NCBI GenBank assembly: GCA_041690135.1
Contig: JAWLHY010000001.1
Location: forward strand, 704,001 to 768,000
Direction of reading: 5' to 3'
Source of the DNA: Armatimonadota bacterium
Lineage (GTDB): Bacteria; Armatimonadota; SYMT01
DNA: 64,000 nucleotides
The notes under the pieces are model-generated. The model did no database searches, was not told the origin of the DNA, and saw nothing but the letters and a program-made list of their open reading frames with translations. Both the position numbers and the translations under genes were made by a program. Below, piece after piece: positions 17,365-24,082 of this stretch (positions within the stretch are counted from its first letter, which is position 1; every line of letters begins with the position of its first letter).

Positions 17365-17442
17365 TTCCCTCTCCGGGCGGACCGACTATCTGGATGGTGG
17401 GTGCCGGAGCGGTGTCCCCTGTTCAGTTCGGCGGGAGGGAGC

Positions 17443-18393
17443 ATGTCGGATCTGGTGCGGAGAGAGCGGGCGCAGGTCGGCGGTGGGGAGCTGCTGAGGC
17501 TCTTGCTGGCGGATAAGCGGAGCGAGGCCACGAAACGGGCTTATGCGGCGGACCTGCGGGACTTCTTCGGCGAGGAGCTGAACCCGCGGGAGGTGGAACG
17601 GTTCGTCTCGCAGCCGCCTGCGGAGATCGCGCGGGTGCTGACCACCTATAAGGGCGAGCTTCTCGCCCGCGGGCTAACCGAGGCGACGGTCAACCGGCGG
17701 CTCGCGGCGATCCGGTCGCTGCTCAAGTTCTGCTACCGCCTGGGATGGTCGCAGACCGACGGGCGGTCCCTGGTTGAGGGTGAGCGGGTGGTGGCGTACC
17801 GCGACACGCGCGGCGTAACACCGGAGATCGTGAAAAAGCTGTTCACCGCGGCGAACACGGGAGACCTGACCGGCCTGCGCGACGTGGCGCTCCTCCGCCT
17901 GCTGTGCGAGAACGCGCTTCGCCGGGCCGAGGTGTGCGCCCTGAACGTGGAGGACTTCCGTCCGGAAGAGCGTCGCCTCAACATCCTGGGCAAGGGCAAG
18001 GGGACCCAGAAGGAGCCGGAAACACTCTCCGAGCGGGCCATCGAGGCGCTGAACCGCTACCTGGCGGTGGCCGGCCACGGCGGGAACCCGGAGGCGCCGC
18101 TGCTGCGGAACGTCGATCCTCGGCCGGAGTACAACGGTCTGCGGCTCACGGGCGACGGGATCTACCACATCGTCCGCGACCTGGGCGCGCGCGTCGGCGT
18201 CCCCAGTCTCACACCGCACAAGCTACGCCACACGGCCATCACCATCGCGCTGGACCTGACGGATGGGAATGTCCGCGCGGTGCGGGACCTCTCGCGCCAC
18301 GCCCGCCTGGAGACCCTCCAGCGGTATGACGACAACCGAAGGAACTTCCAGGGAAGCGTTTCGGAGAAGCTCTCCAACCTGTTCGACGAATAG
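17443..18393 (+). CDS. Tyrosine recombinase (Xer-like, resembling the cyanobacterial YDDNR subfamily)
   Basis: SAM-like N-terminus; catalytic R (ALRRAE), K (GKG), HKLR, H (SRH) and Y (RYDDNR); GGGAGG RBS. Confidence 0.93.
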   Translation: MSDLVRRERAQVGGGELLRLLLADKRSEATKRAYAADLRDFFGEELNPREVERFVSQPPAEIARVLTTYKGELLARGLTEATVNRRLAAIRSLLKFCYRLGWSQTDGRSLVEGERVVAYRDTRGVTPEIVKKLFTAANTGDLTGLRDVALLRLLCENALRRAEVCALNVEDFRPEERRLNILGKGKGTQKEPETLSERAIEALNRYLAVAGHGGNPEAPLLRNVDPRPEYNGLRLTGDGIYHIVRDLGARVGVPSLTPHKLRHTAITIALDLTDGNVRAVRDLSRHARLETLQRYDDNRRNFQGSVSEKLSNLFDE

Positions 18394-18472
18394 CCGGAAC
18401 TTCCGATCCTGGCAAGACGACAGATGAGAGTGAGCGGGCGTGCAGTCCGGTAGTCCCGCACTGGGGTCCTCC

Positions 18473-19741
18473 ATGTCCAAACCGACAGCCGGGCACTTCC
18501 CCTTCCCGATCTCTCGCCCCACACTCCTACAGCAACTCGGAACCCTCGGCGACCTGCTTGAGAACCCGGTTCGAGACCGCGAGCTTCGCAGCCGCATGCG
18601 TGGAGGCCGCACCTACTGGATCACAGGCGGCTACGCTACGGCAGTCAGTGTCTTCGTTCTCTTCCTCTACGGATGGCTTCCGCACCAGTACCAGGGCGTG
18701 GAGATGAAAGCGGCCGCTCCCGGAATTGCGCAAAGCCTCTGGGTATGGGGCTGTGCGCTTCAGGCGGTGTTGCTGAGTTTCTTCGTTCCCGCCTTCACCG
18801 CGGGCAGCATCGCTCGCGAGCGCGAGCGTGAGATGCTGGACCTGCTGTTCCTCACGCGCCTGAGCGCGCTGCGAATCTGCTACGGAAAGCTCGCCGCCGG
18901 GGTTGGGCACGGTTTCATCCTGTTCCTGGCGTCCCTACCACCCCTCGCCCTGTCGTTCACCCTGGGCTCGGTGAGCCCCGTCCAGGTCATCCAGTCGACG
19001 GCCGTCCTGGCGACCTGCGTGTGCTTCGCCGGCGCGTTGGGCCTCTGCCTCTCGTGTATCGCACCCAGAACGGTGACGGCCTCGACCTGGGCGTACCTTC
19101 TCCTGGGCTTCGGGTTGGTGGGCTTGCCCCTGGTCCTGGTGCACTTCGCCAGCGGGCCGTGGACTTCGCAAGTGTCCGATGCCGAAATCGCCGGGATGAT
19201 CATTGCATGCCTGGCGGGAACGTTCCCCCTGGCAGTGCTCCTGGGCGGCATCGGGCTGCGCGTGCGAGAGGGTTGGAAGGAGCGAGAGACGGGAAAGGAA
19301 TGCTCCGCCACGCGGGCCGATTGGCTCCTCTTTTGTGGCTTCTCCTGGTGCGTGACGGCGCTCTCGCTTTGGCTCCCCGGGATGAGCGAACTCGTCCAGA
19401 GCGGCCGCTACCTGCTGGTGCTCCACCCCATTACGGTCCTGCTCTCGACTTCCCCCGGGCCGCAGAGCACAGGGGTCGATCCGCTCCAGGGCCTTGTATT
19501 CTGCGGAATGGCCAGTGCGAGCAGCGTGCGGTCCAGCCCAACGATGATCCAGTTACTGCCGGACTGGCTGCGTGAGCCCGTGGACTCCCTCTTCTGGACT
19601 CTGGGCGACATCGCAAACTACACCGGCTGGAATTCGCTTGGGGACCACCTCTGGTGGATCTACTGCATCATCTTTCTCGGAGCAGCGGCGTGGCTCTTTC
19701 TCATCACGGCCATGCGGGTGAAGCGGCTGCGCGAGGGGTAG
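18473..19741 (+). CDS. ABC-2-type permease
   Basis: NPV..RELRSRMRG, GSIAREREREMLDLL..TRLS...GKL; multiple TM helices. Confidence 0.85.
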   Translation: MSKPTAGHFPFPISRPTLLQQLGTLGDLLENPVRDRELRSRMRGGRTYWITGGYATAVSVFVLFLYGWLPHQYQGVEMKAAAPGIAQSLWVWGCALQAVLLSFFVPAFTAGSIAREREREMLDLLFLTRLSALRICYGKLAAGVGHGFILFLASLPPLALSFTLGSVSPVQVIQSTAVLATCVCFAGALGLCLSCIAPRTVTASTWAYLLLGFGLVGLPLVLVHFASGPWTSQVSDAEIAGMIIACLAGTFPLAVLLGGIGLRVREGWKERETGKECSATRADWLLFCGFSWCVTALSLWLPGMSELVQSGRYLLVLHPITVLLSTSPGPQSTGVDPLQGLVFCGMASASSVRSSPTMIQLLPDWLREPVDSLFWTLGDIANYTGWNSLGDHLWWIYCIIFLGAAAWLFLITAMRVKRLREG

Positions 19742-19928: not shown

Positions 19929-21743
19929 TTGATGACCCAGGAACAGGTCCTCCGGGACAAAGTGGGCGAGGTGCGCACCCGCATCCGCCTGCTGGTCACC
20001 CAGCAATGGATCTGCACGGCCCTCACCGTGTCGCTCCTGACCGGTCTGCTGCTGGTGCTGGCGACCAAGATGCGCTGGTGGACGGATGCCGTCGACTACC
20101 TCTGGGCGCTGGTCTTGCTGGGCGCGGCCGCGGGGTTCGCGATCGGGTGGACCCGCAGCATCACCCCGCAGGTGGCCGCGCAGGTCGCGGATGAGAAGGG
20201 CGGCCTGAAGGAGCGCCTCTCCACCGCGGTGGAGCTGGCCGCCTCCCCCACCCGCAGCCAGATCGCGGAGGTCCAGATCTCCGATGCCGCCGAGCACGCG
20301 CGGCAGTTGAATGTTTCCCAGGTGTTGCCCTGGAAGGCTCCGAAGCAGCTCCGCTACGTGGGCGCCGCCGCCGTGGTGCTGGCCGCCGCCGTGTTCGTGC
20401 CGGAGCTCCCGATCTTCCACAGCAAGCAGGAGCGCCTCGACGCCCAGGTGATGAAGAATGAGGGCACCCGCCTTCAGAAAGTCGCCAAGCAAGTCGAAGC
20501 CAAGCTGAAGGAGAAGAAAGAGAAAGAGTCCGACGAAGAGATCCTCCGCCGGGTCGCCAAGGAGATGCAGAAGCTGGGGAAAGACCAGGCGAAGTCTCGC
20601 GTCTCCAAGAAGCAGGCCATGCTGGCGATGAACGATCTGCAGAAACAGATCAAGGAAGAGGAGAACAAGCTCGCCGGGGGGCCCGCCGGGAAGTCGATGG
20701 AGAAGGTGACGGCCGACCTGAAGGCCGCCGCCGACAAGCAGACCCAGCAGGGCAGCAACGACGCCGGCAAGACGCTGAAGCAGATGGCCGAGAACCTGGA
20801 CAAGCGCGACTTCGATGCCGCCAAGCAGCAGTTGGAGGACCTCGCCAAGAATATCCAGTCCGGCAGCCTGAAACCGGAAGAGGCCAAGCAACTGGCGGAA
20901 ACCATGGAGCAGATGTCCAAGGCCATGGCCGGCTCCAACCTGGACCAGGCCTCGCAGGAGCTCAAGGACGCGGCCTCCAAGCTGCAGGACGCGGTGAAGC
21001 AGGCGGAACAGATACAGCAAAAGATGCAGCAGGCGAAGACCGACGCGGAACGCCAGCAGCTTCAGGAACAGATGCAGCAGGCCCTGAACCAGGGGATGCA
21101 GCAGGCGGCGGCGCAGTGCAGTAAGGCGGGCGGCACATGACAGTCCGCCGGAGGGCGTCAGCGGTCCGCTGACCAACTAGCAGAAATGTCGAAGGCGCTC
21201 CGGTCCGCCCAGCAGTCGCTGCAGCAGGCCGGCCAGGAAACGGCCCAGGGCGGTGGCAGCCAGGGCGACCAGAAGAAAGACGGCCAGGAAGGGCAGTCCG
21301 GCTCCCGAGGCCAGCAGGGCGAACAGGGTGACCAGGCGGGCGAGGGTCAGAATGAGGCCAGCGAAGCGGAGATGGGCGCGGAGTTCGGCGCTTCCCAGTC
21401 CGCTTCCCAGAGCAGCAGTGACTCCGGGGACCCCGGCGCCTCGCAGCGCCGGGGCGGTGGACGCGGCAATGCCGGCCGCGGTGTCGGCGGGAACGTCGGC
21501 GCTCAGCAGCCGCTTCCGGGCAAGAAGAACGACAAGCTCGTTCGCGGCACGGTCAATGATAAGGGCAAGAAGCTGAGTCGCTCCTACATGGGCACGCCGG
21601 ACCCCACGCAGGACCGGGCCGCCTACTACAGCGTGGTTCCCGATAAGGTGAAGGCGGCCGAAGCTTCGCTGAACCGGGAAGAGATCCCCACGGGATACAA
21701 GAAGGCCGTCCGCGACTACTTCAACTCGATACAGCCTCGATAA
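19929..21743 (+). CDS. MoxR-associated membrane coiled-coil protein with an in-frame TGA at 21138-21140 (candidate selenoprotein or read-through)
   Basis: ORFs 19929-21140 and 21186-21743 share one frame and are separated by one TGA and 15 sense codons; N-terminal TM and ERLSTA motif, C-terminal EEIPTGYKKAVRDYF motif. Confidence 0.75.
21157..21173 (+). promoter_or_regulatory. SECIS-like hairpin 3' of the in-frame UGA
   Basis: GTCAGCG-GTC-CGCTGAC; the apical G lies ~23 nt after UGA. Confidence 0.55.
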
Positions 21744-21756
21744 GGAAACTCCAGTC

Positions 21757-22803
21757 TTGTCTTCAACGGAAGCCCTCCCACCCAACGGCGCCGCCCGGGC
21801 GCAGGTCGAAGCACGCGCCCGGGAGTTCATGGACCGCTACCGCAGCGTGCGGCAGGAGATCGCGAAGGTCGTCGTCGGCCAGGATGCCGTCGTGGAGTCG
21901 GTGCTCGTCGCCGTCCTGTGTGGCGGTCACGCCCTGCTGGAGGGGGTGCCCGGGCTCGGCAAGACGCTGCTGGTGCGGACCATCAGCCAGGCGCTGAACC
22001 TGGAGTTCAACCGCATCCAGTTCACTCCCGACCTGATGCCGGCGGACATCACCGGCACGAATATTGTGGTGGAAGACCCCTCCGGCCGGCGGGTCTTCCA
22101 GTTCCAGCCCGGTCCGGTGTTCGCCAATATCGTGCTGGCGGACGAAATCAACCGGGCCACGCCCAAGACCCAGTCCGCTCTGCTGGAAGCCATGCAGGAA
22201 CATTCCGTAACGGTGGCCGGCACCATCCACCGGCTGGATGAGCCGTTCTTTGTGCTCGCCACGCAAAACCCGATCGAGCAGGAGGGGACCTATCCCCTAC
22301 CCGAAGCGCAGCTCGACCGGTTCCTGTTCAAGGTTCTGGTCCCGCAACCCCGGCTGGAGGACCTGGCCGCCATCGTGGACCGCACCACCGGCACCCAGGC
22401 CAACCATGCCAGTGCCGTGCTGAACGGCGAGCAGATCATGGCGATGCAGCGCCTCGCGCGCGAGATCGTGGTGGAAGGCCAGGTGCGGGACTACGCCCTG
22501 AAGATCGTGCTGGGGACCCACCCGGATAGCGAGTACGCCCCCGACGCCGTGAAGCGGTTCGTCCGAGTCGGCTCCAGCCCTCGCGGCGCCCAGGCGATCA
22601 TCCTGGCGGCCAAGGTCCACGCGCTGCTCCAGGGTCGCTACAACGTTGCCTATGACGACATCGACCACGTCGCCACGCCGGCACTGCGGCATCGCCTCAT
22701 CCTCAACTTCGAGGGGGAAGCGGAAGGGGTGACCACGGACAGCGTGGTGGCGGACATCCGGAGCCGGGTGCGGGAAGCGGCGCGGCCGCAAGTGGGAGTG
22801 TAA
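21757..22803 (+). CDS. MoxR family AAA+ ATPase
   Basis: GVPGLGKT, RIQFTPDLMPADITG, DEINRATPKTQSALLEAMQE, LPEAQLDRF. Confidence 0.97.
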   Translation: MSSTEALPPNGAARAQVEARAREFMDRYRSVRQEIAKVVVGQDAVVESVLVAVLCGGHALLEGVPGLGKTLLVRTISQALNLEFNRIQFTPDLMPADITGTNIVVEDPSGRRVFQFQPGPVFANIVLADEINRATPKTQSALLEAMQEHSVTVAGTIHRLDEPFFVLATQNPIEQEGTYPLPEAQLDRFLFKVLVPQPRLEDLAAIVDRTTGTQANHASAVLNGEQIMAMQRLAREIVVEGQVRDYALKIVLGTHPDSEYAPDAVKRFVRVGSSPRGAQAIILAAKVHALLQGRYNVAYDDIDHVATPALRHRLILNFEGEAEGVTTDSVVADIRSRVREAARPQVGV

Positions 22804-22903: not shown

Positions 22904-24082
22904 ATGAGCCCGAGGAACCCCGCAAATCCGGCCGGTAAGTTCCCGCTCGCCACCTACTGCCTCATCCTGGCGCAGTTGGTGGTGTGGATCGTCGTGCGCC
23001 GCTTCTTGCTGCAGGGCGGAGAGTGGACGCAGTTCGCCCTCTACCCGGGCGCTCCGGATGAACTGGGGCTGATCATCTCCCCCTTCATCCACATCGAGCC
23101 GGTCCACCTGGGGATCAACCTGGCCGTGCTCTGGCTGTTCGGCACCAGCCTGGAGCGGACGGTCGGCTCGTTCCAGTTCCTCTTCTTCTACCTGGGCGCC
23201 GCCTGGTTTTCCTCGCTCATGCAATGGGCGGTCTCCACGGCGTTCCAGGTCCATCCCAACCTGGCGGCCAGCAATGCGGCCGTGGGCTCTTCGGGAGCAG
23301 TCGCGGGGATCATGGCCGCGCACCTGGTGCGCTTTCCGCGCGCCCGCCTGAGCCTGCCCTTCAACCGCTCGTTTACGGTGCCCGCCACCCCCATCCTCAC
23401 GCTGTGGGTGGTCTATACCCTTTTCCGCGCGATCATCACCACGGTCGTGGGCTACTCCGAGGGGATCGGGCACTGGGCCCATTTCGGCGGGTTCGTGTTC
23501 GGCCTCGCCATGGCGCAGTTGATGGGCCTCCATCACCTCGCCCGGCGCGAGATGCTGGCGCAAACGGCAGAGGAGGCGTACGCCAGCGACAACCTGCTGG
23601 TGGCTGCCCGGGCCTGGTCCGCGCTGCTGGCCATGCGGCCATCGGACACCCATACCCGTACCGCCCTGATCACGACCCGCCTCGCCATGAGCGATGTTCC
23701 GGGCGCCCGGCGGCTGGCCCGCGAGGGCCTGGAAGCGCTGGTAAAAGCGAACGACCGCCCCACGGCCATCGAGTTGTACGAAGAGTACGTGGAGTTGGTG
23801 CCGGAGTTGGACCTTCCCCCCGGCATCCGGTATCGCCTGGGCTGTTGGCTGGCGGATGCGGGGCGTGACGAACTGGCGTTCCGCGCGCTGTGGGAGAGCG
23901 TCCGCGAAGACGGCGCCACGCCCTCTTCCGCGGCGGCGCTCTACCGCGCGGGCAAGCTGGCGCTGGAGCGCCTCCAGAGCCCCCGCCACGCGCGCCAGGC
24001 CTGGAACTGCCTCCTGGAGCAGTTCCCCGATTCGCCCTGGTGCGACGCGGCCCGCGATAGCCTGCGCCACTTGCCGGCTTAA
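22904..24082 (+). CDS. Rhomboid intramembrane serine protease with TPR-like tail
   Basis: HLGINL, GSSG, HWAHFGG. Confidence 0.9.
   Translation: MSPRNPANPAGKFPLATYCLILAQLVVWIVVRRFLLQGGEWTQFALYPGAPDELGLIISPFIHIEPVHLGINLAVLWLFGTSLERTVGSFQFLFFYLGAAWFSSLMQWAVSTAFQVHPNLAASNAAVGSSGAVAGIMAAHLVRFPRARLSLPFNRSFTVPATPILTLWVVYTLFRAIITTVVGYSEGIGHWAHFGGFVFGLAMAQLMGLHHLARREMLAQTAEEAYASDNLLVAARAWSALLAMRPSDTHTRTALITTRLAMSDVPGARRLAREGLEALVKANDRPTAIELYEEYVELVPELDLPPGIRYRLGCWLADAGRDELAFRALWESVREDGATPSSAAALYRAGKLALERLQSPRHARQAWNCLLEQFPDSPWCDAARDSLRHLPA

Follow-up and report, generated by a model that had tools for sequence, protein, structure and literature searches.

An in-frame UGA followed by a covarying hairpin points to a new selenoprotein family encoded next to MoxR genes in Armatimonadota

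A 603-codon gene of an Armatimonadota bacterium carries an in-frame TGA at codon 403 that very probably encodes selenocysteine (Sec, U). The gene lies in a 64,000-nt stretch of the source genome (GenBank assembly GCA_041690135.1, contig JAWLHY010000001.1, positions 704,001 to 768,000), hereafter called the window. Positions without a contig prefix (C numbers) are those of the window; G000 is the source genome and other G numbers are related genomes, L numbers are related loci and P numbers are database proteins. Translation starts at ATG 19932 (alternative TTG 19929) with GGAG upstream, and the frame, with the TGA read through, stays open to the TAA at 21741-21743. The codon stands in the context ...GCG CAG TGC AGT AAG GCG GGC GGC ACA TGA CAG TCC..., and the third-position GC content is 0.91 before the TGA and 0.82 after it, similar to that of the neighbouring genes. 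A first-pass annotation made from the sequence alone had described an in-frame TGA in a protein of about 600 residues, a Cys seven residues ahead of it, a perfect stem beginning 16 nt downstream and an in-frame ATG at 21186 that lacks a Shine-Dalgarno sequence; all of these features were confirmed, and no GGAGG-like stretch was seen ahead of that ATG. The same annotation had interpreted the site as Sec insertion, or as regulated read-through giving two isoforms, in a non-enzymatic scaffold. The tests that were run all favoured Sec insertion; nothing showed the two-isoform scheme, which may nonetheless accompany Sec decoding as a by-product, and the non-enzymatic scaffold was an assumption.

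The read-through protein was searched against 41 genomes (G000 and 40 relatives) and matched in 26 of them. TGA was present in 14 of the 26, at the same position following AGG(T) (G000, G002, G004, G005, G007, G009, G017, G020, G026, G028, G033, G036, G038 and G039). These genomes come from no fewer than 10 families of the phylum and have AGG(T)-U-x-S-x-G as their shared motif; TGA is likewise present in two metagenome loci, L056 and L057. The site held Cys in G008 (QAGGT-C-QSGG), G023 and G010, with Cys nearby in G001, and a Cys-rich spot was present in G034, G037, G015 and G027. No Cys was found at the site in G025, G030 and G012, and the G006 match does not cover it. The expectation that orthologues would have either TGA or Cys at this codon was borne out, and one genus contains both states (Sec in G038, Cys in G010). 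Forms without TGA are single polypeptides collinear with the window gene, in which, as the first-pass annotation had stated, the N-terminal transmembrane and ERLSTA part and the C-terminal IP..Y...V..YF motif belong to one chain. For many orthologues the gene itself terminates in TGA, which marks this codon as an ordinary stop in these genomes.

The TGA form also follows the distribution of the Sec synthesis gene selA, which scored above the cut-off in 32 of the 41 genomes, among them all 14 with TGA. Nine genomes lack selA; the gene occurs in three of these (G015, G025 and G034) and has TGA in none. selB was above the cut-off in 30 of the 41 genomes. In a 23-row tree with a midpoint root, Sec forms fell on both sides of the root, Cys and Cys-less forms were nested among them, and well-supported branches forced at least five state changes; the direction of these changes is not fixed by the tree because the root is arbitrary. 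As side observations, the selA match of G040 (C1:1103614-1104993) carries one in-frame TAG, and close relatives of the window protein (53-59% identity) were found in L059 and L062, two loci of metagenome-assembled genomes (MAGs) labelled Actinomycetota / Actinomycetes. The remaining close relatives are labelled Armatimonadota or uncultured, and the labels or the binning of L059 and L062 may be off.

Immediately downstream of the TGA lies a hairpin that resembles a Sec insertion sequence (SECIS). It consists of GTCAGCG (21157-21163), the loop GTC (21164-21166) and CGCTGAC (21167-21173), its stem and loop beginning 16 nt and 23 nt, respectively, after the UGA. The bacterial SECIS (bSECIS) model given in Fig. 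2 of a 2026 inventory of prokaryotic selenoproteins (PMC13188914) has a loop of 3-9 nt, a stem of 4-16 bp, a G among the first two loop bases, a UGA-to-loop distance of 16-37 nt and a minimum free energy of at most -7.5 kcal/mol. The window hairpin lies within every bound set out in that figure, as do the hairpins of 12 of the 14 TGA orthologues. Throughout the 14 TGA forms, the stem has 5-9 bp, the loop has 3-5 nt with G at position 1 or 2, and 18-23 nt separate the UGA from the loop, precisely 23 nt in seven of the forms. The stem sequences vary among clades. Folded alone, a 71-nt stretch gave an unremarkable z of -0.75; because GC-rich sequence folds anyway, such a lone fold is uninformative, and within-gene and genome-wide controls were used. 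An equally good SECIS-type hairpin was found at just 1.8% of the other in-frame positions of the gene, and in 12 of the 14 TGA forms the hairpin ranked in the top 0-8.5% of positions within its own gene. An Rfam scan of 20900-21400 returned only a stray miRNA match on the opposite strand; to our knowledge, a general model for bacterial SECIS elements is missing from Rfam.

The hairpin covaries. The search for related loci yielded two from metagenome contigs and five from genome contigs, and because so few were found, the covariation test was limited to 10 sequences, a gap-free alignment of eight Sec and two Cys forms that was compared with 500 shuffles. Paired cells amounted to 87.5% in this alignment against 66.4 ± 3.4% in the shuffles, and the covariation score was 0.608 against 0.239 in the shuffles and at most 0.144 with slid partners; for both measures, none of the 500 shuffles was as high. 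Six of the eight stem pairs were altered on both sides. For example, G002 and G017 have Gln CAG in place of the Arg CGG of G000, and the paired Ser codon is TCT rather than TCC, a synonymous change. A downstream hairpin conserved among orthologues, which the first-pass reading had left to be looked for, is therefore present in all 14 TGA forms, with compensatory changes.

The source genome encodes a complete Sec machinery. Matches to selA (566.6 bits), selB (383.6 bits), selD (369.6 bits) and tRNA-Sec (67.2 bits; called SeC(tca) by ARAGORN) were all recovered, and they sit elsewhere in the genome, which agrees with the earlier remark that the window has no sel genes. selA, selD and tRNA-Sec are adjacent at C1:1149453-1152359, followed by tRNA-Ala, and selB is separate at C8:51343-53220. 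Besides the window gene, the genome has at least four Sec-type genes. selD itself has an in-frame TGA (KCGG-U-ASK), as does fdhA (ARV-U-HSS), and the SECIS loops of this genome are alike: GGUCU in fdhA, GUG in selD and GUC in the window gene. Both the fdhA element (GGUGCCC-GGUCU-GGGCACC) and that of the window gene (GUCAGCG-GUC-CGCUGAC) have a short GC-rich stem and a G-U-C-containing loop, although the stem starts 16 nt after the UGA in the window gene and 11 nt after it in fdhA, and the loops measure 3 and 5 nt. The E. coli fdhF SECIS has a short GC-rich stem and a G-U-C-containing loop as well.

A genome-wide survey (9.1 Mb) collected TGAs preceded by at least 100 and followed by at least 60 open codons. 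It gave 8062 TGAs open on both sides, 68 of which were coding-like on both sides; seven of these also had a hairpin, namely fdhA, two thioredoxin-fold genes, the window site and three others, at least one of which represents two adjacent in-frame genes. The two thioredoxin-fold genes, at C6:281266 (-) and C7:221499 (-), have the TGA in NWFASW-U-GPC and NFWFYG-U-GAC, respectively; in both, a 7-bp hairpin follows the TGA at a distance of 10 nt (loops GGC and GUU), and they look like known-type UxxC thiol-disulfide selenoproteins. A further TGA, at C2:1206443 (+), lies in RVACVR-U-GEENPITM between coding-like stretches of 412 and 354 codons, with a hairpin 22 nt downstream.

We also examined the protein around the proposed Sec residue. 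From the N-terminus, three hydrophobic segments lead into a long helical part; Sec403 follows, then a Gly/Gln-rich disordered linker and finally a C-terminal two-helix domain. A GLKERLSTA stretch between the second and third hydrophobic segments is conserved in the alignment; hydrophobicity and charge are ambiguous on topology, and the Sec may lie on either side of the membrane. An AlphaFold2 model built from a 64-row alignment (mean predicted local distance difference test score 80.8) has residues 3-440 helical, residues 451-568 disordered and helices at 565-582 and 590-600 at the C-terminus. A Foldseek search of this model against the PDB gave no match at E ≤ 0.001, the best (0.12) being a designed coiled coil. 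In 13 Sec forms, Cys residues cluster around U: the 260 positions no more than 10 residues from U contain 12 Cys, whereas the 5163 other soluble positions contain 3. The partner Cys lies at -7, -6, +3, +6 or +10 from U and is absent from G017. It is at +3 in G002 and G007 (U-G-S-C), G004 (U-A-S-C) and G036 (U-R-A-C), and at -7 in G000.

The wider family points to the same site. A profile search of 1.84 billion representatives retrieved 15,235 proteins at a threshold of E ≤ 0.001, of which 3,658 remained at E ≤ 1e-30; the weaker end of this list may be inflated by coiled-coil composition. Among the best 150 representatives, 63 had CxxCxGxGCxxC, 45 a single CxxC and 24 other Cys; the remainder were 10 proteins without Cys in the soluble part and 8 short open reading frames (ORFs), six of them ending in G[GA][TGS]. 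The CxxCxGxGCxxC motif was seen among distant family members only. Since relatives hold CxxC or CxxCxGxGCxxC at this place and Cys neighbours U, we infer that U403 and C396 may form a redox-active or metal-binding pair descended from the Cys cluster, and a redox or metal site seems likelier than a non-enzymatic scaffold because the Sec sits in the Cys-cluster position of the relatives. Separately, three ORFs of distant members, P0099, P0109 (449 aa) and P0234 (439 aa), break off after ...CDCEGEG, ...ECEGEG and ...CESCGGGG, respectively, at the point that the third Cys of CxxCxGxGCxxC occupies in full-length relatives; these ORFs, too, may represent Sec forms, from other lineages.

Several observations weigh against Sec at this codon or weaken the case for it. 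The AlphaFold2 model puts U403 within a continuous helix (371-440) with no obvious active-site loop. Two hairpins, at -4.6 kcal/mol in G007 and at -6.0 kcal/mol with one bulge in G017, miss the energy limit of the bSECIS model, and that limit only. Nor is the hairpin strictly tied to TGA, because the Cys forms G008 and G023 keep a good one; in the other four Cys forms checked (G001, G010, G034 and G015) no qualifying hairpin was found. G008 and G023 are both sister to the Sec form G036 on the tree, so we read their hairpins as relics, which remains a caveat. The TGA is retained in L056, a 1,532-nt metagenome contig with 78% identity, yet its frame is broken in the hairpin loop, where one G is missing about 27 nt after the TGA; this 1-nt deletion may reflect a mistake in the assembly or a genuine defect. 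The surveyed genomes are kin, so the counts given above overstate independence. Finally, read support for the TGA is thin. No sequencing run contained even one-fifth of the sampled words, and the TGA at 21138-21140 was confirmed in one run only, by a soil-metagenome contig (X1; 151 nt, 0 differences) that spans 21073-21223 and may derive from the source sample. RNA contigs flank the TGA on both sides and do not include it; because they are only 90-95% alike, they were assigned to relatives.

The best-surviving alternative, which we nevertheless regard as very unlikely, is that the TGA is a true stop. The gene would then encode a 402-residue protein, and the C-terminal part would be translated separately from ATG 21186, as in a split gene, or would not be made. 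Gene callers do treat the TGA in this way. A database search with the 402-residue N-terminal ORF (E ≤ 1e-5) matched 109 clusters, 55 of which correspond to ORFs roughly 400 residues long whose last residues are exactly AG[GA][TG] (50 GGT, 1 AGT, 2 GGG and 2 GAG); these are unnamed or called "hypothetical protein", and one comes from an Armatimonadota MAG. Close full-length relatives with Cys at the site, P0018 (KAGEA-C-KNPSQ) and P0046, were also recovered. ATG 21186 is in frame, which would suit a second gene, but it has no Shine-Dalgarno sequence, no start codon is conserved after the TGA (the first Met of G002 comes 27 residues later), and the residues between the TGA and the ATG are conserved as protein, with x-S-x-G...Q-x-S-A-x-x-L standing ahead of any possible start codon. 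A plain stop is further at odds with the fused forms that have Cys exactly at the site, with the covariation of the hairpin and with the confinement of the TGA form to selA-positive genomes.

UGA is leaky in bacteria, and a suppressor or a near-cognate tRNA might decode the codon with no selenium involved, the hairpin merely slowing the ribosome. Besides this general leakiness, the retention of the hairpin in two Cys forms speaks for such a reading, since a role apart from SelB is then possible. We consider it even less probable than a stop, because the residue that relatives have instead is Cys, the usual substitute for Sec, because the loop G and the spacing fit a SelB-type model in all 14 forms, because the genome has the complete Sec machinery with other Sec genes, and because no TGA form was found in selA-less genomes. 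A sequencing error or a strain-specific nonsense mutation in a pseudogene, to which the confirmation of the base by one independent-looking contig, maybe from the source sample, still lends some room, has a negligible probability and appears in effect refuted by conservation across genomes: the same TGA recurs in L056, in L057 and in 13 other genomes, which belong to several families, it is implied in the 55 database ORFs, and the downstream frame keeps its coding-like composition and conservation.

With Sec thus preferred at codon 403, the surroundings of the gene can be considered (Table 1). The gene order ABC-2 permease, window gene, MoxR is conserved. In 30 related loci that were searched (L022-L051), MoxR was directly downstream in 26 and a homologue of the ABC-2-type permease was upstream in 11; a rhomboid gene followed MoxR in five (L022, L025, L027, L049 and L051). 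A complex prediction for MoxR and residues 540-603 of the window protein scored 0.00 in one job and counts neither way.

Table 1 Features of the candidate selenoprotein gene and its neighbours in the window
Feature	Position	Strand	Details
Whole gene	19932..21743	+	603 codons + TAA (21741-21743), TGA read through
Membrane anchor	20004..20423	+	Hydrophobic residues 25-47, 53-74, 139-164 (Kyte-Doolittle)
Cys396 codon TGC	21117..21119	+	7 codons before the TGA; sole Cys of the soluble part; candidate Sec partner
In-frame TGA, proposed Sec codon U403	21138..21140	+	Motif K-A-G-G-T-U-Q-S-A-G
SECIS-like hairpin	21157..21173	+	7-bp GUCAGCG/CGCUGAC, loop GUC, -9.2 kcal/mol
Conserved C-terminal domain	21564..21740	+	...YMGTPDPTQDRAAYY...AAEASLNREEIPxxYKKxVRDYF...; invariant columns
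XerC/XerD-type tyrosine recombinase	17401-18393	+	Phage_integrase and SAM-like N-terminal domain; adjoins the permease gene upstream
ABC-2-type permease-like gene	18440..19741	+	Weak ABC2_membrane matches, E = 1.8e-4, below the Pfam cut-off
MoxR-type AAA+ ATPase	21757..22803	+	AAA_3 E = 1e-63, AAA_lid_2; starts 14 nt after the gene stop
Rhomboid protease with TPR tail	22904..24082	+	Rhomboid E = 9e-28

In the mechanism that we propose, UGA codon 403 would be read by Sec-tRNA(Sec), delivered by SelB that the hairpin at 21157-21173 would recruit. The product would be a 603-residue, membrane-anchored and almost entirely helical protein, with Sec403 at the distal end of a helical stalk, ahead of the disordered linker and the small C-terminal domain. 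The Sec-Cys pair would most likely be a redox-active selenylsulfide or a metal-binding site, and the protein may work with the upstream ABC-2-type permease and the downstream MoxR AAA+ ATPase. The C-terminal domain is translated only when the TGA is decoded, and failed decoding would leave a 402-residue product without it.

Comparable Cys motifs are known from other systems: DnaJ has CXXCXGXG zinc-finger repeats, and Rad50 carries a CxxC zinc hook on a long helical stalk. The present family resembles them in that relatives have CxxCxGxGCxxC or CxxC at the site, which, as in Rad50, sits on a long helical stalk. However, none of 24 members had a Pfam match to the DnaJ zinc-finger model, G000 has only U403 and C396 in place of four Cys ligands, and NCBIfam Rad50/SMC matches were stray coiled-coil hits in at most 2 of the 24. 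MoxR AAA+ systems with membrane partners include the Bacteroides aerotolerance (Bat) operon and the MoxR-DUF58-VWA cassettes, and here, too, MoxR (AAA_3) adjoins the gene of a putative membrane-bound partner. Unlike those systems, the scanned window neighbours include no DUF58 or VWA gene, with rhomboid, M24 peptidase, DUF1501 and others in their place, and the window protein matches none of the named Bat families.

Among bacterial selenoproteins, those of the UxxC/CxxU type belong to thioredoxin-, TlpA- and Prx-like families in Table 1 of the inventory (PMC13188914). They share with the window family the in-frame UGA, the downstream SECIS with a G-first loop and the existence of Cys homologues, and the UxxC spacing, with a partner Cys at +3 from U, also occurs in several of its members. 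In contrast, the G000 form has its partner Cys at -7, and the window protein has no thioredoxin fold: it is predicted to be a membrane-anchored helical protein of about 600 residues with U in a long helix. We also considered membership of the UGSC family (NF041046), whose U-G-S-C tetrapeptide recurs in G002 and G007, while G000 has U-Q-S-A; it was rejected, since none of the 24 members matched at E ≤ 0.01, and the resemblance is a four-residue coincidence.

The window protein had no Pfam or NCBIfam match, and together with 23 relatives it gave only stray coiled-coil matches to these collections. Nothing like it was found among the 119 prokaryotic selenoprotein families, each with a model id, that Table 1 of the inventory lists (PMC13188914), rows defined by cd or PTHR models being compared without a model scan. 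The remark of the first-pass annotation that no described selenoprotein of this kind was known therefore stands as far as that table reaches. The literature search brought up no paper that describes such a MoxR-linked or Armatimonadota selenoprotein, although supplements or a groundwater-MAG study could list unvalidated candidates. These results indicate that the family is new to the catalogues checked, whereas the decoding mechanism is the known bacterial one.

More speculatively, and with a chance that we judge to be small, the Sec-Cys dyad may serve as a "selenium hook" at the tip of the stalk, through which two or more stalks would share a metal ion or form intermolecular selenylsulfides. 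The redox state, or the supply of metal or selenium, would in this way influence how the permease, the stalk and MoxR assemble. With the C-terminal domain dependent on UGA decoding, selenium supply would also set the ratio of complete to truncated protein. If this were true, the selenoprotein would act on an AAA+ chaperone machine as a structural or regulatory switch and not as an enzyme.

The finding also exposes a systematic annotation error, in which 55 of the 109 relatives have been cut to "hypothetical proteins" and their C-terminal domains orphaned. The inventory describes Sec-to-Cys replacements as rarely documented in bacteria (PMC13188914). The family of the window gene shows at least five changes of Sec/Cys state on the tree and includes Cys forms that retain a SECIS-like hairpin. 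With Sec at codon 403, the prokaryotic selenoproteome would gain a family without an evident oxidoreductase fold, a membrane-anchored helical MoxR partner in which Sec replaces a Cys of a CxxC-type cluster. For the large parent family, which has neither a name nor a model, the Sec/Cys site would mark a residue that matters and offer a handle on function.

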